From: a virus
Strand: one strand, 5' to 3'
UHGV virus genome: UHGV-0272092
DNA: 37,793 nucleotides
The position numbers were made by a program, and so were the translations under genes. The notes beneath the pieces are model-generated. The model saw only the letters and a program-made list of their open reading frames with translations, ran no database searches and was not told where the DNA came from. Of this stretch, positions 1,453-37,793 are shown piece after piece (the first letter of the stretch is position 1; each line of letters begins with the position of its first letter).

Positions 1453-2703
1453 TTATTCCCCCGCCATCCACTTCTCAAACTTCGACGGGGAGAACGGAAT
1501 CAGATCCGTATGCTCCCCGTCAATCCATGAATCAATCATATCGGCCCACTGCTGCAACATGTAGGCGCGCTGTCTGGCGTATTCCGCTTTGTTATATACG
1601 GCGCGCACACCTTTCTGCTCATGTGCCAGAGCCTTTTCAATCCAGTCTGAAGGATAACCAGCCTCATGCAACAACGTACTGGCTGTACGGCGCATATCAT
1701 GTACAGTGAAGTCCTGAATATGCTCACCATCTTCATTTATTATTTTCACCGTTCTGTCGATCAGAGAGTTCAGCGCGGCATTAGATAATGGCTTCCGGAA
1801 ATTGTAACGACCAGGAACCAGATATTCACTTCCACCAGCGCACATCTGCAACCCGACCAATATATCCTGTGCCTGTTTAGGCAGGTAAATAACGTGCGCC
1901 CGGCTTCCCTTCATGCGGTCTGGAGGAATTGTCCATGTCCATTTTTTAAAATCTATTTCATCCCACGTTGCATTGGTGAATTCGCCCTTACGAACCATAG
2001 TGATAAGCACCAGTTTTAAAGCCATTTTCATAGTGCCCATAGCACCAATGGCATCCAGCGTGCGGAAGAACAGGCCAATTTCTTCTGGTGCCAGTGTTCG
2101 CTCTCGTGGTTTAAATATGGCGATAGACGAAGGTTTAATGTCAGCCGCAGGATTAAACAAACCATGACCACGGTCATTGGCGTGACGGTATACGCTACTG
2201 ATGATCTCCCTGGCCTGCACTGCTGTTGCCCGGCCACCGCGTTCGACAATCCGGTCACACAAATCACGAACCATCGATGTGGTAATTTCAGCCATCATTT
2301 TATTGCCAAGAACCGGAAGTATGTCACGGTCGATCACCGCCTGTTTCATTGCGCGGGTACTGTCAGCCAGGATGACGTGTTTCATATAACTGTCGGTATG
2401 TACCGCAAACGTCTCGGCACCACGAATCTTTTTGATACCGTCACGTTTAGCCGCAGCCGGTGACTGGCCTGCTTTAAGCAGCTTCTTTGCAGCAATCAGT
2501 TCTTCTCGCGCTTCTGCCAGGCTGATACCGTCACGCCCATACTGCCCGATTACCAGTGTTTCGCGGCGACCGTTGATACGGTAGTCATAGCGAAACGAGA
2601 CCGTGCCTGACGTAAGCACAGCTACATACAGCCCGTCACGATCGGAGACCTTGTACAGTTTGTCCTGCGGCTTGAGGTTTTTTAATTTTGTATCGGTAAG
2701 CAC
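1453..2703 (-). CDS. int: tyrosine integrase (P4-type, DUF4102-like N-terminus)
   Basis: 416 aa; C-terminal catalytic region HDMRRTASTLLHEAGYPSDWIEKALAH typical of phage integrases. Confidence 0.9.
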   Translation of the reverse strand: MLTDTKLKNLKPQDKLYKVSDRDGLYVAVLTSGTVSFRYDYRINGRRETLVIGQYGRDGISLAEAREELIAAKKLLKAGQSPAAAKRDGIKKIRGAETFAVHTDSYMKHVILADSTRAMKQAVIDRDILPVLGNKMMAEITTSMVRDLCDRIVERGGRATAVQAREIISSVYRHANDRGHGLFNPAADIKPSSIAIFKPRERTLAPEEIGLFFRTLDAIGAMGTMKMALKLVLITMVRKGEFTNATWDEIDFKKWTWTIPPDRMKGSRAHVIYLPKQAQDILVGLQMCAGGSEYLVPGRYNFRKPLSNAALNSLIDRTVKIINEDGEHIQDFTVHDMRRTASTLLHEAGYPSDWIEKALAHEQKGVRAVYNKAEYARQRAYMLQQWADMIDSWIDGEHTDLIPFSPSKFEKWMAGE

Positions 2704-8244: not shown

Positions 8245-8308
8245 GTTAAATCTCCAGATAGTCGCAGCACCCGTTGCGCCGCATATCTGGTTATTCTATT
8301 ACCTGGAA

Positions 8309-8319
8309 AACCACATATG
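8309..8319 (-). promoter_or_regulatory. conserved element AACCACATATG upstream of the tailspike gene
   Basis: Identical 11-mer at 24915-24925; preceded by ATTACC-N5 in both copies. Confidence 0.45.
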
Positions 8320-8348: not shown

Positions 8349-8363
8349 TTACCTTTCAGGTAA
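8349..8363. promoter_or_regulatory. operator-like palindrome TTACCTTTCAGGTAA
   Basis: Perfect 15-bp palindrome, identical to the copy at 24967-24981. Confidence 0.55.
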
Positions 8364-8400
8364 TTTGCAAAACGTGCTGGATAGCAAACAAATTATTTGA

Positions 8401-8420
8401 TACTGTATAAATATACAGTT
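8401..8420. promoter_or_regulatory. LexA (SOS) box TACTGTATAAATATACAGTT
   Basis: CTGT-N8-ACAG with AT-rich centre, 18 of 20 matches to consensus TACTGTATATATATACAGTA. It occupies the spacer between a possible -35 TTGATA (8397-8402) and a weak -10. Confidence 0.7.
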
Positions 8421-8439: not shown

Positions 8440-8697
8440 ATGCAGCAGTATCACTATCCACTGGAAGACGGATTTACCGAAAGGATTCACACGCCGGGAG
8501 GCGTCAGGTCACTGGTGGAGGGATCGCACTTGATGAAATTACTCCGGGATCTCGATAAGGATGGATTTAATGTCGATGGCCCACTTGCCGAACTGACTGC
8601 ACTGATTAACTACGTCACCAGCTCACAGATGTCTATGCAGGATCTGCAAACACATCTCGACTATTGTGCCGAACAATTACGAAAACAAACCCGGTAA
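8440..8697 (+). CDS. small LexA-controlled protein (85 aa), candidate antirepressor
   Basis: ATG 8440 with RBS GGAG 8 nt upstream. Plus-strand gene embedded between minus-strand tail genes, directly downstream of the LexA box. Confidence 0.55.
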   Translation: MQQYHYPLEDGFTERIHTPGGVRSLVEGSHLMKLLRDLDKDGFNVDGPLAELTALINYVTSSQMSMQDLQTHLDYCAEQLRKQTR

Positions 8698-8704
8698 ATT
8701 TAAA

Positions 8705-8733
8705 GGCCGCGAAAGCGGCCTGTGACATGTCAC
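8705..8733 (+). promoter_or_regulatory. GNRA-loop hairpin GGCCGC-GAAA-GCGGCC followed by palindrome GTGACATGTCAC (8722-8733)
   Basis: Read from sequence immediately after the stop of the 8440-8697 gene; no T-run follows. Confidence 0.5.
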
Positions 8734-22686: not shown

Positions 22687-22979
22687 TCCTGTTCACTGGC
22701 CTCTTTGGCCATCTTCAAATACTGTTCAGGGCAATGCGCCATAACGCGCTGAAACAGTTCCAGCGCCAGATTGCGTTGCCCCTCATTAAATGCCATTGCC
22801 ATAGCATCCATCGGAGAGATAGCGGAAAACACCCGGCCTTTCTCCAGCACCGACCAGACAACGCGACGCCCCTGTTCACTGCTCATGACAAAGCGAATGT
22901 CATCAATTTCACGCTGTGCCATGTCACGTTGCTTACGGGCGTTTTCTTCTTTCAGTTGATCGTCTTCGAAATCTGTCAT
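22683..22979 (-). CDS. hypothetical head-morphogenesis protein (98 aa)
   Basis: Overlapping start/stop with portal and scaffold genes. Confidence 0.4.
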   Translation of the reverse strand: MTDFEDDQLKEENARKQRDMAQREIDDIRFVMSSEQGRRVVWSVLEKGRVFSAISPMDAMAMAFNEGQRNLALELFQRVMAHCPEQYLKMAKEASEQE

Positions 22980-24876: not shown

Positions 24877-24914
24877 ATCAATGACTCCGTACGCAATTAA
24901 ATTATTACCAATTT

Positions 24915-24925
24915 AACCACATATG
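24915..24925 (-). promoter_or_regulatory. conserved element AACCACATATG upstream of the head operon
   Basis: Identical to 8309-8319; preceded by ATTACC-N5. Confidence 0.45.
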
Positions 24926-24966
24926 ATTTATTTATCGTAGGTAGTTGACATTTAACGCACAAATTA

Positions 24967-24981
24967 TTACCTTTCAGGTAA
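24967..24981. promoter_or_regulatory. operator-like palindrome TTACCTTTCAGGTAA
   Basis: Identical to the copy at 8349-8363. Confidence 0.55.
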
Positions 24982-25303: not shown

Positions 25304-25380
25304 GTGGCATTAGCTCAGTTGGACAGAGCAACCGCCTTCTAAGCGGTTGGTCGCAGGTTCGAATCCTGCATGCCACGCCA
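25304..25380 (+). tRNA. tRNA-Arg (anticodon UCU), 77 nt including CCA
   Basis: Hand-folded cloverleaf: acceptor GTGGCAT/ATGCCAC, D-stem GCTC/GAGC, anticodon stem ACCGC/GCGGT with loop CTTCTAA, T-stem GCAGG/CCTGC with loop TTCGAAT, discriminator G, CCA. Confidence 0.85.
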
Positions 25381-25568: not shown

Positions 25569-25580
25569 AAGGTGAAAATC

Positions 25581-25913
25581 ATGAAAGAGAAGACTGCAGC
25601 TGAGCGCTATGCCGCAGCTATCAATGCCGCGATGGCGATTGTAAACCTGCGTGAAGAGATTAAAGATCTCCTTGCAATTATCCATAACAACCTGACATGT
25701 ACAGAGTTGCTTGGCGGTCAGTACAACGGTGAGGCGGTGAAGGAGGCATTTAAAAATGCCGAGGTAGGAATAATTCCAGCAAACTATGTCAAGGCTGAAT
25801 GTGTGCTCCTAAAGGCACGAGTGAGTCTGCATGAAGATCCTGGTAATCTCGGTCGAACTGCAATGCGTTACGTGATAGACGAGTCGAATGCCAAACACAA
25901 TCTACCGAAATAA
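25581..25913 (+). CDS. hypothetical protein (110 aa), plus-strand gene between terminase and portal
   Basis: ATG 25581 with RBS AAGGTGA; track ORF opens at GTG 25572. No family recognised. Confidence 0.55.
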   Translation: MKEKTAAERYAAAINAAMAIVNLREEIKDLLAIIHNNLTCTELLGGQYNGEAVKEAFKNAEVGIIPANYVKAECVLLKARVSLHEDPGNLGRTAMRYVIDESNAKHNLPK

Positions 25914-25916
25914 CAC

Positions 25917-25928
25917 CGTGACATGTCA
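25917..25928. promoter_or_regulatory. 12-bp palindrome GTGACATGTCAC (copy 2 of 3)
   Basis: Exact repeat of 8722-8733 and 28183-28194. Confidence 0.5.
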
Positions 25929-26003
25929 CAAACAGACAGCCTATGAGCTGGCTTTGTTTTATCCTCACCAGAGGATATCAACGACATTATCCCCACCAGC
26001 GGA

Positions 26004-27479: not shown

Positions 27480-28072
27480 TGATTACCATCCTGACGTTCT
27501 TTGAGTCGCTTCCTGGCTGCTGCTATGCGATCAGCAATTGTCACATTCACATTAACATCCAGACGTTCTTTGAACGCGTTGACATCAACATGCTTACCAA
27601 TCAGCTCAAGGTTCTTCACCTTGTCAGGCCATTTAATTTTTTTGAGGATTGTCTCTATCGAATCCTCGTTCATGTTCATGATGGTCGATGACAGATCAAA
27701 GCCACTAAGCGTAGTGCGCCAGATTTTCGGCCACTCACGGATTGGTTTAAGGCTCCCATCGTCGTTGAGGATGTCGATCACGTCCATCTGGTCGATCTCC
27801 ACCAGGCGCATGAGAACGTAATCAGCACTGACGCGCATTCGTTTGTTGCGCTCCTCCATCAACTCGGCAATCCGTTTTTGAATGCGTTCATCGCGCATCA
27901 TGACACTGGCTTTAACTGCCGCTGTATTTGGGGAGAATCCTGCGTTAATCGCTGCCTGAGTCTGGTTTTCAGGCGTTTTGATGTATGACTGGCAATAAGC
28001 CTCCTGCATTGCTGTTAGTGGCTTAAATTGCGTTGATTTGCGTTTATAGGTTTTAGGTTCAGCAGGCATCAT
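27476..28072 (-). CDS. terminase small subunit
   Basis: Position; start moved to MMPAEPK (ATG 28072, RBS GGTGG) because the upstream extension to 28150 contains a terminator hairpin and direct repeats. Confidence 0.65.
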   Translation of the reverse strand: MMPAEPKTYKRKSTQFKPLTAMQEAYCQSYIKTPENQTQAAINAGFSPNTAAVKASVMMRDERIQKRIAELMEERNKRMRVSADYVLMRLVEIDQMDVIDILNDDGSLKPIREWPKIWRTTLSGFDLSSTIMNMNEDSIETILKKIKWPDKVKNLELIGKHVDVNAFKERLDVNVNVTIADRIAAARKRLKERQDGNQ

Positions 28073-28081
28073 AACCACCGT

Positions 28082-28111
28082 GGTAATAGTTACCGTTGTG
28101 GTAATAGTACC
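28082..28111 (-). repeat. tandem direct repeat GGTAATAGT(T)ACC x2 directly upstream of the small terminase start
   Basis: GGTAATAGTTACC (28082-28094) and GGTAATAGTACC (28100-28111). Confidence 0.5.
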
Positions 28112-28141
28112 ATGCAAAATAAAGCCGCCATAGTTGGCGGC
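28112..28141 (-). terminator. rho-independent terminator between the accessory early genes and the terminase genes
   Basis: Stem GCCGCCA / TGGCGGC; on the minus strand followed by TTTATTTTG. Confidence 0.6.
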
Positions 28142-28182: not shown

Positions 28183-28194
28183 GTGACATGTCAC
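28183..28194. promoter_or_regulatory. 12-bp palindrome GTGACATGTCAC (copy 3 of 3), overlapping the stop of the 28191-28538 gene
   Basis: Exact repeat. Confidence 0.5.
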
Positions 28195-28538
28195 ACTATT
28201 AATTTCGTTTCATGCCAGCCTTTAGTCACCCAGCATTGCGAGTCACCATTACACGGGCATGAATTAACTGGAACTCTCTCGCCGCACTTACCGCAACATT
28301 TTCTGCTGATCGATTTTATACGCCCGCGCACGCGTGCATCATCCTGGCGGATCAGTAACGCGATGTACTCGGCCATTTCATAGGGATCGCGACCAGGGCG
28401 CCGGGCGGCGCAGTTCCGCGCCAGCATTTCCTGCTCCTGCTTATCCAGCACCAGTTCAATTTTGCGCTCACCGGCGGCGGACTGCCGAGCGCGCTGCGCG
28501 GCTTTGCGTTCTGCGGGGGATTTAGCCACGAATCGCAC
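28191..28538 (-). CDS. Cys-rich small protein (about 111-115 aa), candidate late-gene regulator
   Basis: C-terminal Cys cluster CCGKCG...CPCNGDSQC; last gene before the terminase-proximal terminator. Track start is GTG; a second GTG with RBS GGAG is at 28526. Confidence 0.45.
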   Translation of the reverse strand: MRFVAKSPAERKAAQRARQSAAGERKIELVLDKQEQEMLARNCAARRPGRDPYEMAEYIALLIRQDDARVRGRIKSISRKCCGKCGERVPVNSCPCNGDSQCWVTKGWHETKLIV

Positions 28539-32160: not shown

Positions 32161-32237
32161 TTACCTCTAAGGTAATTGAAAACCATATAAGACACGAAAT
32201 CAATAGAGTTTAGAATATTTTGTTACCTTGTAGGTAA
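32161..32237. promoter_or_regulatory. pair of operator-like palindromes TTACCTCTAAGGTAA (32161-32175) and TTACCTTGTAGGTAA (32223-32237)
   Basis: Two perfect-armed palindromes 62 bp apart between P and the DUF1064 gene. Confidence 0.55.
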
Positions 32238-32274
32238 TTGTTGAGGCGTAAAAAAATGCGCTATCGCGCTGGTA

Positions 32275-34124: not shown

Positions 34125-34139
34125 TTACCCTTAAGGTGC
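34125..34139. promoter_or_regulatory. operator-like site TTACCCTTAAGGTGC downstream of the cro terminator
   Basis: Imperfect member of the TTACC-N5-GGTAA family. Confidence 0.4.
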
Positions 34140-34150
34140 GAATAGATATG

Positions 34151-34176
34151 AAAAGACCGCCGGATGGCGGTCTACA
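34151..34176 (-). terminator. tR1-like terminator downstream of the Cro-like gene
   Basis: Stem AGACCGCC / GGCGGTCT with a 4-nt loop; on the minus strand followed by TTTCATATCT. Confidence 0.5.
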
Positions 34177-34194: not shown

Positions 34195-34425
34195 TCATGA
34201 GTAGAAGAAGTATGCCAGTTCTGCTTTTGAGCGCAGCCATTGTCTTGTTTTACAGGCTTTAAAAAGCCCATTCATCAATACTTTACCTGGCATTTTGCGC
34301 TTGCCTGTTAAGTGAGTCTGGATATAGTGACTCGTCGTTCCGGCTTCCTGTGCGAAGGCTTCACGCTCATCCGGAGTAAGTGCAAGCCAGTGCTTTTTGA
34401 AATCGAAATGTCCGTTATCGCTCAT
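34195..34425 (-). CDS. Cro/CII-like HTH regulator (76 aa)
   Basis: First gene of the minus-strand early operon next to the operator cluster; helix-turn-helix-like segment AQEAGTTSHYIQTHLTG. Confidence 0.5.
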   Translation of the reverse strand: MSDNGHFDFKKHWLALTPDEREAFAQEAGTTSHYIQTHLTGKRKMPGKVLMNGLFKACKTRQWLRSKAELAYFFYS

Positions 34426-34461
34426 AGCTATTGCCTGATATTTATTTCAGATAATAAATAT

Positions 34462-34523
34462 TCACCCATAAGGTAACAAAAATCAAGGATAGTTACCTAT
34501 GAGGTGCATTTACCTGTTGGGTA
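34462..34523. promoter_or_regulatory. OR-like operator cluster with three sites: TCACCCATAAGGTAA (34462-34476), TTACCTATGAGGTGC (34493-34507), TTACCTGTTGGGTAA (34509-34523)
   Basis: Three 15-bp sites in the divergent intergenic region between the Cro-like and repressor genes. Confidence 0.65.
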
Positions 34524-34579
34524 ATATTGCTTTAAATTGAATCATCTACTGATTCATATATGAGGCGATTTTCCAGAAA

Positions 34580-35164
34580 ATGAAAAGTATCCAGGACGTC
34601 CGCAGGCAAAATCTCAACGACTTGATCGACCGTGAATTCAATGGTGTTCAGACGCGGATGGCAGAAAAACTTGGAACTCAGGCAAATCTGGTAAACCGCT
34701 GGGCTCTTGGCAAGAAGGTTATCGGCGACCAGGTTGCACGAAAAATTGAAGCTGCCGCCAATAAACCCCGTAACTGGCTTGATATTGATCGTTCGCTTTC
34801 TCAGGAGGGTTTTCAGCCTGTCGGCCCGAGCGATATAGGTCAGCTGGCGGCTCACAACCTGGAACGCTGGATGAGCGAAAGCCGCGACCTTTCAACACAG
34901 GGAAAACTTCACCGCGCATCCGGCGTCGCCCAGGTGACAATCAGCCGCCTGTTAAACAATGAGGTCAGCGTTTCCATTTCCACCCTGGAGAATGTTGCAT
35001 CCGCATTCGGGCGTCACGGATATGAACTACTGATTCACCCGCACGACCCTGCGACTATCAACTATGACCGCTCACGCTACGCATTGTTACCCGAAACCGA
35101 GAAAGCAAAGATCGAAAGTTACATTGAATTTGTCATCAACCAGAACGAAAAAAGCAAACAATAA
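34580..35164 (+). CDS. prophage repressor, tandem HTH domains, no S24 peptidase domain
   Basis: Two XRE-type HTH-like segments (TRMAEKLGTQANLVNRWALGKK and ASGVAQVTISRLLNNEVSVS); no Ala-Gly / Ser-Lys autocleavage signature. Confidence 0.65.
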   Translation: MKSIQDVRRQNLNDLIDREFNGVQTRMAEKLGTQANLVNRWALGKKVIGDQVARKIEAAANKPRNWLDIDRSLSQEGFQPVGPSDIGQLAAHNLERWMSESRDLSTQGKLHRASGVAQVTISRLLNNEVSVSISTLENVASAFGRHGYELLIHPHDPATINYDRSRYALLPETEKAKIESYIEFVINQNEKSKQ

Positions 35165-35184
35165 AACTATAGTTTTCAGTAAGT

Positions 35185-35210
35185 AAGCCGCCTCATGGCG
35201 GCTTTTTTAT
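35185..35210 (+). terminator. rho-independent terminator after the repressor gene
   Basis: AGCCGCC-TCAT-GGCGGCT followed by TTTTTT. Confidence 0.65.
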
Positions 35211-35221
35211 TGCCAGATAGA

Positions 35222-35298
35222 TTACCTTACGGGTAATTTTTTTAACTCATATCTATTGACACCAAACCAAATAAGCATAATTATTACCCCAACGGTAA
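35222..35298 (+). promoter_or_regulatory. OL-like region: operators TTACCTTACGGGTAA (35222-35236) and TTACCCCAACGGTAA (35284-35298) flanking a sigma70-like promoter (-35 TTGACA 35256-35261)
   Basis: TTGACA followed 14-16 nt later by CATAAT/ATAATT; the second operator overlaps the start region. Confidence 0.6.
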
Positions 35299-35317: not shown

Positions 35318-35470
35318 ATGCAGTGGAAAATCATCAACGGTTGGTACTGCGTTACTGCATGCGGATTCATGAGCTGGAAGTTCCGCACCTTACAGGAAGG
35401 CATTAAGTGGGCTTTCGTCAGCAAAGAAGCTCGCGATGTAGCCAACGATAACGAGATATGGGAGGGCTGA
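35318..35470 (+). CDS. small protein (50 aa), first gene of the leftward-type early operon
   Basis: ATG with AGGTAA upstream; stop overlaps the start of the next gene. Confidence 0.35.
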   Translation: MQWKIINGWYCVTACGFMSWKFRTLQEGIKWAFVSKEARDVANDNEIWEG

Positions 35471-35472
35471 TA

Positions 35473-35772
35473 ATGAACGTTAATCAGCAGAAAAATCTTC
35501 AAAAAATCATGCTGGCATTCGACAAGGACTACCGCCTGTCAGAACAGCTATATGACCGACAAGTTGAACTGATTGAGAGCATCCGACTTCATCAACTGTC
35601 CTCAACTTTCGACGTTGTAACAGGCAAAGGCGTTCGTCAGGAAGTGCTGGAGGCTGCTAAAGACAGCCCTGAGTTCGAAGAACTGATGGATGCCTACCGG
35701 CGCGAGGCAATGGCAATTATAGCGCGCTGGGATCTGGCGGATCAGCTTGATGGGCAGAGGGACGCGGCATGA
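35473..35772 (+). CDS. hypothetical early protein (99 aa)
   Basis: RBS GGGAGGG 7 nt upstream of ATG 35473; ATGA overlap with the exonuclease start. Track ORF opens at 35458. Confidence 0.5.
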   Translation: MNVNQQKNLQKIMLAFDKDYRLSEQLYDRQVELIESIRLHQLSSTFDVVTGKGVRQEVLEAAKDSPEFEELMDAYRREAMAIIARWDLADQLDGQRDAA

Positions 35773-36668
35773 TGCGGAACGCTGGAATCATGGATAGAAC
35801 AAAATACATCGGAGGAAGCGATGTTGCAGGGATTCTTGGAATTAGCCCATGGCGCACCCCGCTTGAGGTTTATCTGGATAAGGTCCAGCCACGTGTCAAA
35901 CCAGTAGACCCAAGCAAGCAGAAAGTTTTCACGCGTGGCCAGCGTATGGAGCCATACGTAATAGACCTGCTTTCTGAGGAAACAGGGATGGAAATCGTTC
36001 ATCGCGGAAACCGCTATATCCACCGTGATTACGATTTTATTGCAGCTGAGATCGATGCAGAAGCAGCGTCAGGCGAGAACATTGAGATCAAAACAGTTAG
36101 TCCGTTCAAAGCCAAAGAATGGGGAGAAATCCAGACAGATGCAATTCCTGTGCATTACACGGCCCAGGCCATGCACGGGTTGATGGTTACAAACAAACAG
36201 GTATGCGTTTTCGGTGTGCTTATCGGTGGCGACGACTTCCGAATCTATCGGGTTGAGCGTGATGAAGAAACTATCCAGGCGATCTTAGAAAAAGAAATCG
36301 CTTTCTGGGACCGAGTGAAAAATCTTAACCCGCCGGAAGCTACCAGCGTAAGCGATGTATCGCTGATGTTTGAGAAAGATGCCGGGACAAGTATCGAGGC
36401 TGACGGAAAGGCACTCGCACTATTCAACGATCTACGAGACATGAAATCACGCAGAAAATCACTGGAAGAAGAAATAGCTATATCAGAAGAGAAGCTGAAG
36501 ATGTACATGCAAGAGCACTCAGTCCTGACCCTGGACGGAAAGCCGCTCTGCACATGGAAATCTCAGATCAGCAACAGATTCGACCAGAAGCTATTCCAGT
36601 CAGTACACCCTGAGTTATTCGAAAAATTCAAAACAACAACGACACAACGCGTCTTCAGAATGAAGTAA
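35769..36668 (+). CDS. YqaJ-type recombination exonuclease
   Basis: N-terminal IGGSDVAGILGISPW motif typical of YqaJ/lambda-exo-like nucleases; paired with RecT downstream. Confidence 0.75.
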   Translation: MMRNAGIMDRTKYIGGSDVAGILGISPWRTPLEVYLDKVQPRVKPVDPSKQKVFTRGQRMEPYVIDLLSEETGMEIVHRGNRYIHRDYDFIAAEIDAEAASGENIEIKTVSPFKAKEWGEIQTDAIPVHYTAQAMHGLMVTNKQVCVFGVLIGGDDFRIYRVERDEETIQAILEKEIAFWDRVKNLNPPEATSVSDVSLMFEKDAGTSIEADGKALALFNDLRDMKSRRKSLEEEIAISEEKLKMYMQEHSVLTLDGKPLCTWKSQISNRFDQKLFQSVHPELFEKFKTTTTQRVFRMK

Positions 36669-36677
36669 GGAGAAAAA

Positions 36678-37700
36678 ATGTCTATCAATGCACTTAAGGC
36701 AGCGGCTACCGGTAACCAAGTTGCACATCATAATGAGAAACCAACAACTCTGGCCGGACTTCTGGCAGACCCAAAAATTAAAGCTCAGATGGCTTTGGCA
36801 CTTCCAAAGCACATGACAGCAGACCGTCTGGCGCGCATAGCAACCACAGAGATCAGAAAGGTTCCAAAACTTGCATCATGCGACCAAGCCAGCTTCCTGG
36901 GGGCAATTATGCAATGTGCCCAATTGGGTCTTGAACCAGGCGGAGCTCTTGGACACGCTTACCTGATACCGTTCGACAAACGCCAGAAAGTAAATGGAAG
37001 ATGGGAAACCGTATCTACAGAAGCACAGCTGATTATCGGCTATCGCGGAATGATTGACCTTGCCCGCCGCTCTGGGCAGATCCTGAGTATCTCGGCTCGT
37101 ACCGTACATACAAACGACAAATTCAGCTACTCATACGGCCTGGAAGAAACGCTCGAGCATTTACCTTGCGAAACAGGTGACCGCGGAGAATTAACGCACG
37201 TTTACGCCGTTGCACGACTGAAAGATGGCGGAGTCCAATTTGAAGTTATGAGCCGGGCAGACGTTGAGAAAGTTCGTGCACTGAGCAAAGCCGGTAGCAG
37301 TGGCCCATGGGTTGATCACTTCGATGAGATGGCTAAAAAAACAGTAATTCGCCGACTGTTCAAATATCTTCCTGTTTCTATTGAAATGCAGAAGGCTGTT
37401 GTTATGGATGAGCGCGCTGAAGCTGGACTTAGCCAAGATAACGCAGCTGTTATCACTGGTGAATATTCCGTAGTTGACGATGAGCGTCAACACCTGTCGC
37501 CAATTTCAGATTCAGAACGAGAAGAAGCTCGAGAATATATCATCGCGATACTTAATAGCCTGGATCCATCTGCTGAAGATGCAAAAACGATGTTCAAGCG
37601 CGCTGAAAATGAAATTAACACCATGGCTGAAAAGCTCGGTGATGAATATCACCAAAAATTCATGATGACGCTTAACGATATGCGTCCAGAATTCGAGTAA
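36678..37700 (+). CDS. recT: RecT-family single-strand annealing protein
   Basis: 340 aa; segments LIPF...IIGYRGMIDLARRSG characteristic of RecT, from memory. Confidence 0.8.
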   Translation: MSINALKAAATGNQVAHHNEKPTTLAGLLADPKIKAQMALALPKHMTADRLARIATTEIRKVPKLASCDQASFLGAIMQCAQLGLEPGGALGHAYLIPFDKRQKVNGRWETVSTEAQLIIGYRGMIDLARRSGQILSISARTVHTNDKFSYSYGLEETLEHLPCETGDRGELTHVYAVARLKDGGVQFEVMSRADVEKVRALSKAGSSGPWVDHFDEMAKKTVIRRLFKYLPVSIEMQKAVVMDERAEAGLSQDNAAVITGEYSVVDDERQHLSPISDSEREEAREYIIAILNSLDPSAEDAKTMFKRAENEINTMAEKLGDEYHQKFMMTLNDMRPEFE

Positions 37701-37749
37701 CCACCACCGCGGCGCCACGTGCGCCGCACTGCAACCAAGAGAGGTATTC

Positions 37750-37793
37750 ATGAAAGGTGCATTAGGTAAGAAAGAACTCCTGGCGGTGGTGCC
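37750..37793 (+). CDS. start of a further early gene, truncated by window end
   Basis: RBS AGAGAGG upstream of ATG 37750; reads MKGALGKKELLAVV; preceded by hairpin GCGGCGC-CACGT-GCGCCGC (37713-37731). Confidence 0.3.
   Translation, partial: MKGALGKKELLAVV

Follow-up and report, generated by a model that had tools for sequence, protein, structure and literature searches.

TTACC-N5-GGTAA palindromes as probable Rep operators in the immunity region of a phiV10/epsilon15-type temperate phage

Genes of the immunity region

A repressor gene, rep, and a divergent gene for a small helix-turn-helix (HTH) protein in the position of cro enclose three palindromic sites (OR), and two further sites (OL) accompany a pL-type promoter downstream of rep (Table 1). 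The cro-position gene opens an operon on the minus strand, which also carries a DnaT-domain replication protein and a lambda-P homologue. The gene directions and identities that a sequence-only reading had assigned here (divergent cro-position gene and rep, exo, RecT, replication genes) were all confirmed. The window, by which we mean the whole stretch of 37,793 nucleotides analysed (UHGV-0272092), shares 97-98% nucleotide identity with phiV10, ZX5 and TL-2011b and is a Uetakevirus. Prophages of the phiV10 type abound in E. coli, O157 and other STEC strains among them. Homologies, motif statistics, site positions and their conservation were computed directly.

Table 1. Coordinates of genes, operators, promoters and terminators in the window
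Feature	Position	Strand	Remarks
Ant, antirepressor, 85 aa	8440..8697	+	Homologue of SPC32H Ant
ant/tailspike operator	8349..8363		Divergent region; ends 14 bp upstream of predicted ant -35
Predicted ant promoter	8378..8419	+	TGGATA (8378-8383)-N17-TACTGT (8401-8406); overlaps LexA box
Predicted LexA box	8401-8419		TACTGTATAAATATACAGT, perfect; unique in window; 21 bp before ant ATG
tRNA-Arg-unit promoter	24944..24981	+	TTGACA (24944-24949)-N17-TACCTT; -10 inside operator 24967-24981
terS operator pair	28072..28104		28090 perfect, 28072 with 1 mismatch; 18 bp apart
Third putative Rep-controlled promoter (nin-type)	32161..32237	-	Between lambda-P homologue and DUF1064 gene
nin-type operators	32223-32237; 32161-32175		About -62; about +1
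Predicted nin-type hexamers	32203..32198; 32180..32175	-	TTGATT-N17-TTCAAT
Weak operator-like site	34125-34139		2 mismatches; beyond cro-position gene terminator
Terminator after cro-position gene	34173..34154	-
cro-position gene, 76-aa HTH protein	34195..34425	-	First gene of replication-side operon
OR site A	34462-34476		TCACCCATAAGGTAA, 1 mismatch; within spacer and -10 region of cro-side promoter
Cro-side promoter PR, predicted -35	34481..34486	-	TTGATT; AAATCAA invariant in nine lineages
OR site B	34493-34507		TTACCTATGAGGTGC, 2 mismatches
OR site C	34510-34524		TTACCTGTTGGGTAA, perfect
rep promoter, candidate -10	34533..34538	+	TAAATT; -35 would be TTACCT inside site C
Rep, repressor, 194 aa	34580..35164	+	Full-length homologue of SPC32H Rep
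Intrinsic terminator 3' of rep	35185..35204	+	Also annotated in phiV10
OL upstream operator	35222-35236		Perfect; centred about -62 of pL
pL-type promoter	35256..35284	+	TTGACA-N17-AATTAT; consensus score 10/12
OL downstream operator	35284-35298		Perfect; starts at last -10 base
pL operon	35318..37700	+	50-aa and 104-aa unknowns, then YqaJ exonuclease, RecT
YqaJ exonuclease	35769-36668	+
RecT	36678-37700	+

Residues 1-190 of Rep aligned to residues 2-197 of SPC32H Rep (5D50_A; E 3.5e-42, 43% identity), and residues 89-190 also matched 5D4Z. The C-terminal half aligned with the dimerisation and tetramerisation domains of SPC32H Rep, and divergence between the two proteins is strong outside the recognition helix, most of all in the middle and C-terminal domains. 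Searches of Pfam, PHROGs and NCBIfam returned HTH-type matches only, with no S24 peptidase or autocleavage domain. Rep is 99-100% identical to the repressors of phiV10, ZX5 (99.5%) and HEMP4, and overexpression of the ZX5 repressor lowers lytic transcription (PMC9782041). PMC9638917 and PMC9986798, both secondary sources, describe SPC32H Rep as a tetramer that binds palindromic sites through DNA-binding pairs drawn from different dimers and that is disassembled by tetrameric Ant.

The antirepressor matched 5D50_E, 'Anti-repressor protein', with 73 of 83 residues identical (about 88%; E 4e-47), as well as phrog_450 and the C-terminal part of phrog_1760, annotated anti-repressor. The hexamers and spacing of its predicted promoter are conserved in SPC32H, epsilon15 and BUCT711. 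SPC32H belongs to the same genus and likewise has a LexA box before ant; its antirepression switch was reportedly worked out by Kim & Ryu in 2013 (J Virol) and Kim et al. in 2016 (PNAS; PDB 5D50, 5D4Z). Since Rep has no peptidase domain, is homologous to the Rep of the SPC32H Rep/Ant system and is accompanied by a LexA box before ant, these sequence features indicate that induction most likely proceeds via a LexA-controlled antirepressor and not via RecA-dependent cleavage. We are confident that a phiV10/epsilon15-type temperate phage has its immunity switch in this region and that an SPC32H-type Rep/Ant system runs it. The SPC32H-type system has already been characterised; here a lambda-like layout is combined with a known repressor that is not lambda CI.

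Distribution and conservation of the palindrome

We found eight perfect copies of TTACC-N5-GGTAA in the window and none in any of 100 dinucleotide-preserving shuffles; matches with up to two mismatches numbered 33, compared with 10 +/- 3.3 expected. All eight perfect sites lie in non-coding DNA, which makes up about 8.8% of the window (chance about 4e-9). Together these results exclude chance as the source of the motif. In an unbiased scan of all palindromes with arms of 5-6 bp and gaps of 0-9 bp, this was the commonest one in the window, SPC32H, Tyrion and BUCT711, although the Reps of these four genomes share only 43-78% identity. Most sites in the window also carry a flanking A and T around the TTACC/GGTAA core. 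The arms are invariant and the centre varies freely without compensation. The sites are inverted repeats in intergenic DNA, and they might be read as RNA hairpins, terminators or accidents of A+T-rich sequence instead of protein-binding sites. We give this reading almost no credence. With a 5-bp stem, a 5-nt loop and no T-run the palindromes are not terminators, the real terminators stand separately nearby, and the distances at which the sites overlap -10 and +1 positions are fixed; the pattern of fixed arms around an uncompensated centre and the absence of perfect copies from the shuffles also speak against it.

The recognition helix NLVNRW of Rep was invariant wherever the motif was present, and N-terminal Rep relatives with other helices (TQVSRL, SIVNQH) had no such sites within 4 kb. 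As judged from these sequences, the palindromes are very probably real repressor-binding sites of phiV10/epsilon15-type E. coli phages. In the GenBank record of epsilon15 (AY150271.2) an identical motif, ATTACC-N5-GGTAAT, is marked 'protein_bind: repressor, lysogeny' at seven sites, which read (A)TTACC-N5-GGTAAT: three at pL and one each at a nin-type promoter, between ant and the tailspike gene, ahead of gp3 and ahead of terS. These correspond in synteny to the window sites at terS, gp3/tRNA, ant/tailspike, pL and the nin-type promoter, so that our identification of the motif is correct but ordinary. The three OR sites and the downstream nin-type site are present in epsilon15 but unmarked. 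No operators are marked in the phiV10 and ZX5 records, and public phiV10-type records list Rep as 'putative repressor' and Ant as 'hypothetical protein' with operators unmarked. The main value of the present work is annotation, and current understanding is not overturned. In SPC32H the sites are syntenic with those of the window and spaced alike, but a third site follows on the pL side after another 76 bp, and site B is perfect. A full-text literature search for the motif gave no relevant match.

The assignment of the motif to Rep is based on co-occurrence, and the equally conserved cro-position protein co-occurs with it too. That protein keeps 58-84% identity between lineages, in which the stretch AGTTSHYIQxHLT never varies, and it matched phrog_35, 'transcriptional repressor' (E 5.6e-13), with no sequence match in Pfam, NCBIfam or PDB. 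Its AF2 model (pLDDT 81.6) has five helices, and the best folds were the YdaS, 434-repressor and C-protein HTH, all of them weak (Foldseek E >= 1, TM 0.56-0.62). It is Cro-like by position only. Its putative recognition helix is invariant in the same lineages, so co-occurrence cannot separate it from Rep, and the palindromes might be read mainly by this or another phage HTH protein, with the Rep target elsewhere. Both proteins may bind here, just as Cro and CI share operators in lambda. We regard a main role for another reader as very improbable, however, because the palindrome scan and the lineage alignment revealed no second repeated palindrome in OR or OL that would be left for Rep. Furthermore, the ant, terS and tRNA-unit sites suit a lysogenic repressor and not a lytic-phase Cro, PMC9638917 reports SPC32H Rep on palindromic sites, and the epsilon15 curators gave the sites to the repressor.

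Operators and promoters

All five sites claimed by the sequence-only reading, three at OR and two at OL, were found, and of the OR coordinates 34462 and 34493 were exact while the third, given as 34509, proved to be a perfect site one base further on. This three-plus-two set is real but incomplete; the operator set is wider, with four more loci carrying the motif (32161/32223, 28072/28090, 24967 and 8349). The three-site OR between the divergent genes is kept in nine aligned lineages, in which the ACC...GGT columns are invariant. The sites are unequal, as had been proposed. Site A is imperfect in every lineage examined (1-2 mismatches) and site C is perfect in all, with the first base of the rep ATG always 61-63 bp from its centre. 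Site B, whose centre is 30-31 bp away from that of A and 17 bp away from that of C, is degenerate in the window and perfect in SPC32H, epsilon15, BUCT711 and Citrobacter prophages. Graded affinities might be inferred from these differences; what is seen is match quality. Three is an odd number of sites for a repressor with two DNA-binding units.

On the cro side, the promoter scan offered TTGTTA-N17-TATTAT (34479..34451) as an alternative PR, and site A overlaps the core promoter either way. On the rep side, T[AT]AATT follows TTACCT by exactly 17 bp in nine lineages, and the consensus promoter scan did not pick the window version, TTACCT-N17-TAAATT. A leaderless rep start from TTAGGT-N17-TACAAT fits sequences of the SPC32H clade; it has no good counterpart in the window clade.

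At OL, the proposed TTGACA/ATAAT promoter held for TTGACA (35256-35261) and had to be revised in its -10, as CATAAT at 35276 would leave a spacer of only 14 bp and AATTAT (35279-35284) fits with 17 bp. Both CTATTGAC and (A/G)ATTAT are conserved in four lineages. The downstream operator is centred on the expected transcription start, and the two operators are 62 bp apart in the window and 61-63 bp apart in 11 lineages. The distance from site C to the rep start codon equals that between these paired operators.

The nin-type unit comes after a terminator at about 32269..32250. Its operators stand 62 bp apart and its -35 has the context CTATTGA, both as at pL, and 11 lineages share these features. 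The consensus scan rejected this promoter for its weak -10, which lacks A2. A plus-strand AAGACA-N16-TAGAAT between the two operators was discarded as it is not conserved in SPC32H. Altogether, 11 lineages, among them prophages of Superficieibacter, Erwinia, Klebsiella, Citrobacter and Scandinavium, kept the geometry A-30/31-B-17-C at OR and the distance of 61-63 bp within the operator pairs of pL and the nin-type promoter. This diverse set came from a scan of species-representative genomes. An IMG/VR scan with the Rep alignment gave at least 80 loci, all 99-100% identical and therefore without diversity; among the IMG/VR candidate stretches, 299 Rep relatives were confirmed.

A terminator (28141..28124) bounds the terS operators on one side and the terS start codon (28072..28070) on the other, and the operators have syntenic counterparts in SPC32H, epsilon15 and Tyrion, of which the epsilon15 one is annotated as repressor-binding. 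A promoter search between terminator and terS found no convincing sigma-70 promoter, and TTGCAT...TAACTA was ruled out as it needs a 19-bp spacer. The promoter at 24944..24981 faces a tRNA-Arg gene (25304-25380) and an ORF (25572-25913); promoter and operator are conserved in five lineages, and the epsilon15 counterpart is again annotated as repressor-binding, as is that of the 8349 operator. Placement of this last operator at -62 of ant was dropped, since the conserved TGGATA-N17-TACTGT promoter puts it nearer -57.

The locus had been described as a lambda-like immunity region. As in lambda, divergent repressor and cro genes surround a tripartite operator, pL has its own operators and drives exo/recombination genes in the direction of the repressor gene, and terminators follow cro and the replication genes; the OR-OL distance of about 0.7 kb could allow looping. 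The description is thus apt for the layout, the tripartite OR and the OL/pL arrangement, and it fails for the repressor machinery, which has no S24 domain and is of the SPC32H Rep/Ant type. A true lambda-type switch would have a dimeric CI-like repressor that fills OR in order of affinity, with cooperativity between adjacent dimers and RecA-stimulated self-cleavage. Differences in match quality between sites, like the layout, agree with this, but we consider it highly improbable. Rep is a full-length homologue of the non-cleavable SPC32H Rep, an Ant gene with a LexA box is present, the order of the sites is the reverse of that in lambda, with the strongest, C, most distant from the cro promoter, and the 62-bp pairs have no counterpart in lambda. 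Repressor fold, oligomeric state and inactivation route all differ from those of lambda, as do the 15-bp operator with its 5-bp free centre, spacings of 17, 31 and 62 bp compared with about 24 in lambda, and operators at four loci outside OR and OL.

Proposed operator pairing and prophage induction

For the SPC32H-type switch that we favour, the following mechanism is proposed. In the lysogen, the N-terminal HTH domain of Rep would bind the 15-bp TTACC-N5-GGTAA sites, the middle domain would serve dimerisation, and the C-terminal domain would serve tetramerisation and Ant binding. Site A would act inside the core of the cro-side promoter, and sites B and C, over or just upstream of the rep promoter, would allow autoregulation. 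At pL and at the second early promoter, before the DUF1064 (nin-like) genes, one operator would cover the -10 and the transcription start, and the pair formed with its partner exactly 62 bp upstream would probably be held by one tetramer or by cooperating tetramers, keeping the promoter closed. The remaining operators would hold the tRNA-Arg unit, terS entry and the ant/tailspike region under Rep control. After DNA damage LexA would leave the box overlapping the ant promoter and Ant would be made, with Rep uncleaved; Ant would then bind the Rep C-terminal domains and remove Rep from DNA, so that all Rep-controlled promoters would open together. Promoter start points, site pairing, binding and the sign of autoregulation are inferred. 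The circuit of Rep, Ant and LexA and the full operator set predict prophage induction via SOS and LexA without repressor cleavage, and the operator set also predicts which promoters open upon induction.

The strict 61-63 bp pairing suggests that cooperatively bound site pairs are the working unit, rather than a simple series of graded affinities. The pairs at about -62 and +1 of the two early promoters may form a dedicated micro-loop clamp, in which one Rep tetramer would use its two trans-assembled DNA-binding units to grip both sites, on one face of the DNA, and wrap the promoter. The lone -62 site at rep may instead work in the manner of a class-I activator, with a rep mRNA that is leaderless or nearly so. 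If this were true, Rep, with the clamp and with operators at each of the other transcription units, would lock the whole genome instead of switching two promoters. We advance clamp, class-I-like activation and lock as one joint proposal, tentatively and with more doubt than belief. The literature consulted, which for SPC32H comprised secondary sources, gave no description of a micro-loop clamp, class-I-like activation or genome-wide lock of this kind.

Many sites across a genome, including sites before late or structural genes, are also a feature of P1 C1 and of the 'stoperators' of mycobacteriophage L5 gp71. The P1 and L5 sites are asymmetric, and in L5 orientation-dependent, whereas the window has about 8-11 symmetric sites, most of which overlap recognisable promoters. 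LexA-controlled small proteins that remove a non-cleavable repressor include Tum of coliphage 186, the Gifsy/Fels antirepressors and AntC of N15. These proteins are unrelated to the window Ant, which matches the SPC32H family only; 186 Tum is also mentioned in PMC9782041.

The operator and the recognition helix are near-invariant among phages of Escherichia, Salmonella, Enterobacter, Klebsiella and Citrobacter, which raises the question of whether all of these are homoimmune. Among the operators counted in the genome-wide lock reading are those directly before terS, behind the terminator. At the place equivalent to the weak site at 34125-34139, Tyrion and BUCT711 carry sites with one mismatch.

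Operators in and beyond OR and OL

The sequence-only reading had described a lambda-like immunity region with three operators in OR and two in OL, each built on the motif TTACC-N5-GGTAA. We found that all five sites are present (see the table), although site C starts at 34510 and not, as proposed, at 34509. The gene layout had also been drawn correctly. Sites A, B and C all lie within the 154-bp gap between a 76-aa gene (34195-34425, minus strand), whose HTH product occupies the Cro position, and the 194-aa repressor (Rep) gene (34580-35164, plus strand). After a terminator (35185-35204), the OL operators bracket the pL-type promoter, TTGACA (35256)-N17-AATTAT (35284), and this is followed by two small ORFs and the genes for a YqaJ-type exonuclease and RecT. 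Minus-strand genes on the opposite side encode a 70-aa product, a replication protein with a DnaT domain and a homologue of lambda P.

The operators and layout of that reading thus stood, but the regulon was incomplete, since perfect copies of the motif also occur at four loci outside OR and OL. The arrangement at 32161/32223, here called the nin-type promoter, is a copy of that at pL. Both run in the order terminator, upstream operator, A/T tract, CTATTGA (-35), 17-bp spacer and -10; the last base of the -10 is the first of the downstream operator, and the operator centres lie at about -62 and +1.

The perfect motif occurs eight times in the window and in none of 100 dinucleotide-preserving shuffles. 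All eight copies are in non-coding DNA, which makes up ~8.8% of the window (chance ~4e-9). Furthermore, in an unbiased count of all palindromes with arms of 5-6 bp and gaps of 0-9 bp, it ranked first in the window as well as in three relatives.

Operators and associated features of the window
Feature	Position	Sequence	Placement
OR site A	34462-34476	TCACCCATAAGGTAA, 1 mismatch	
OR site B	34493-34507	2 mismatches	
OR site C	34510-34524	perfect	
OL sites	35222-35236; 35284-35298	both perfect	
nin-type pair	32161; 32223	perfect	exactly 62 bp apart, between lambda-P homologue and DUF1064 gene
terS-proximal operators	28090; 28072	perfect; 1 mismatch	between terminator and terS start codon
tRNA-Arg-side operator	24967	perfect	overlaps -10 of conserved TTGACA-N17-TACCTT promoter facing tRNA-Arg
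ant-side operator	8349	perfect	ends 14 bp upstream of ant -35, divergent tailspike/ant gap
Operator-like site	2746-2760	ATACCTTTAAGGTAA, 1 mismatch	43 bp upstream of integrase start (2703, minus strand)
tRNA-Arg gene	25304-25380 (+)	anticodon TCT	inside otherwise minus-strand packaging/structural block
ant gene	8440-8697	85 aa	
LexA box	8401-8419	perfect, unique in window	upstream of ant
Second palindrome (12 bp)	8722-8733; 25918-25929; 28183-28194; 22916	GTGACATGTCAC, perfect; 1 mismatch at 22916	intrinsic terminator adjoins each perfect copy
Late element	8297-8319; 24903-24925	TATTACC-N5-AACCACATATG	25-55 bp upstream of minus-strand late gene starts (tailspike, 8244; gp4-like/portal operon, 24876)

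The tRNA-Arg gene is apparently served by a predicted Rep-controlled TTGACA promoter at 24944. The operator-like site ahead of the integrase gene is kept, with one mismatch and in a matching place, in the diverged relatives SPC32H, epsilon15, Tyrion and BUCT711; it might be either a low-affinity Rep site at the int promoter or just part of a conserved attP arm.

Repressor, antirepressor and induction

The window is 97-98% identical in nucleotide sequence to Escherichia phages ZX5, TL-2011b, phiV10, HEMP4 and other Uetakevirus (the epsilon15 group). Rep (194 aa) shares 99-100% identity with the 'putative repressor' of those close phages, 76-78% with Enterobacter phage repressors and 43-45% with its counterparts in Klebsiella phages, epsilon15, SPN1S and SPC32H. 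The likeness to lambda did not extend to the kind of repressor: domain searches of Rep returned nothing but HTH-type matches, with no sign of an S24 peptidase domain, and the protein aligned end to end with the crystallised Rep of Salmonella phage SPC32H (5D50_A, E 3.5e-42), with a 5D4Z match covering residues 89-190. According to secondary sources, SPC32H Rep has an N-terminal DNA-binding, a middle dimerisation and a C-terminal tetramerisation and Ant-binding domain; its tetramer binds palindromic DNA with DNA-binding pairs from different dimers, and is taken apart by the tetrameric antirepressor, Ant (PMC9638917, PMC9986798). In ZX5 (98% identical), overexpression of the repressor lowered lytic transcription; no operators were defined in that study (PMC9782041).

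Ant of the window shares 73/83 residues with SPC32H Ant (5D50_E, E 4e-47). Overlapping the LexA box is a predicted promoter, TGGATA-N17-TACTGT, which is also kept in SPC32H, epsilon15 and BUCT711. Because Rep has no S24 peptidase domain and both an Ant homologue and a LexA box are present, the most likely route of induction is that SOS causes loss of LexA, production of Ant and release of Rep, which is the SPC32H mechanism and differs from RecA-stimulated cleavage in lambda. Records for ZX5, phiV10, TL-2011b and related phages list the SPC32H-type ant gene simply as a 'hypothetical protein', and in ZX5 the antirepressor role was given to a Bro-N protein instead (PMC9782041). Tyrion has a 234-aa 'putative anti-repressor' at the ant locus, and window Ant matches the C-terminal part of phrog_1760, a PHROG of about that protein's size.

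Around the rep start codon (stretch 34560-34582), no lineage compared has a convincing Shine-Dalgarno, and SPC32H-clade sequences have a TACAAT hexamer ending 4 nt 5' of the rep ATG. Together these hint at a leaderless rep mRNA, as with lambda cI when transcribed from PRM; the window's clade showed no evident counterpart of that -10.

Conservation and proposed working

We compared SPC32H, epsilon15, Tyrion, BUCT711 and prophages from a species-representative genome scan (hosts Superficieibacter, Erwinia dacicola, Klebsiella, two Citrobacter species and Scandinavium). In all lineages OR reads A, 30-31 bp, B, 17 bp, C, with site A imperfect (1-2 mismatches) and site C perfect and centred 61-63 bp from the rep ATG. 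Pair spacing was 61-63 bp at pL and 61-62 bp at the nin-type promoter, and 703-724 bp separated site C from the upstream OL site. Invariant in a nine-way OR alignment were the ACC/GGT arms, AAATCAA, read as the cro-side -35 (TTGATT), and T[AT]AATT, 17 bp after TTACCT of site C, while the motif centres were free to vary.

The putative recognition helix of Rep, NLVNRW, is invariant though overall identity drops to 43%, and no such sites were found within 4 kb of the N-terminal relatives in Hydrogenovibrio, Thiomicrospira and Paraburkholderia, whose helices differ. At the sequence level, this co-variation links the motif with Rep, although the Cro-position protein shows equal conservation and might bind these sites as well.

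On the most likely reading, Rep tetramers on site A would block the cro-side promoter and those on sites B and C would autoregulate rep, with others filling the -62/+1 operator pairs of pL and of the nin-type promoter. Because distances of 31 and 62 bp amount to roughly 3 and 6 turns of the helix, A and B share one DNA face, as do the members of each 62-bp pair; B and C, 17 bp apart, do not. This placement suggests that the two DNA-binding units of a Rep tetramer bridge sites on the same face.

In the epsilon15 record (GenBank AY150271.2), seven copies of (A)TTACC-N5-GGTAAT already carry the label 'protein_bind: repressor, lysogeny': three at pL and single ones at the nin-type promoter, upstream of terS, upstream of gp3 and between ant and the tailspike gene; the OR sites are left unmarked. 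Thus there is no novelty in the motif, in its scatter over the genome or in assigning it to the repressor, and the Rep/Ant mechanism was already solved structurally in a genus member. Our addition is modest and comes from sequence comparison: the whole predicted system is common to phiV10-type E. coli phages, the tripartite OR has a conserved, predicted weak-to-strong site order opposite to that of lambda, and the spacing of the paired putative operators is a strict 62 bp.

Other palindromes and the late region

The second palindrome has three perfect copies in the window against about 0.07 expected, and is also found in SPC32H, Tyrion and BUCT711, where the copies that were located have corresponding positions, for example at the junction ahead of terS. 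At that junction GTGACA, one half of the palindrome, is scored as a -35 (GTGACA-N18-CATGAT in the window, GTGACA-N17-TAAATT in SPC32H and Tyrion). This promoter candidate is followed by a terminator, Rep operators and terS, a layout reminiscent of lambda pR'-tR' placed after a Q-like regulator; gene 28191-28538 is phrog_536 'transcriptional regulator'.

The late element occurs exactly twice (0 expected) and is kept almost base for base in five lineages. It contains one Rep half-site and CATATG, followed on the gene strand by TAGAAT or TAATTT, and is a candidate activator-dependent late promoter.

Because the window ends (36678-37793) in the pL operon with RecT and starts (1-2703) with the genes that follow RecT in phiV10, namely a methylase, small ORFs and integrase (1453-2703, minus strand), it has the appearance of an almost complete phage or prophage genome in circularly permuted form.
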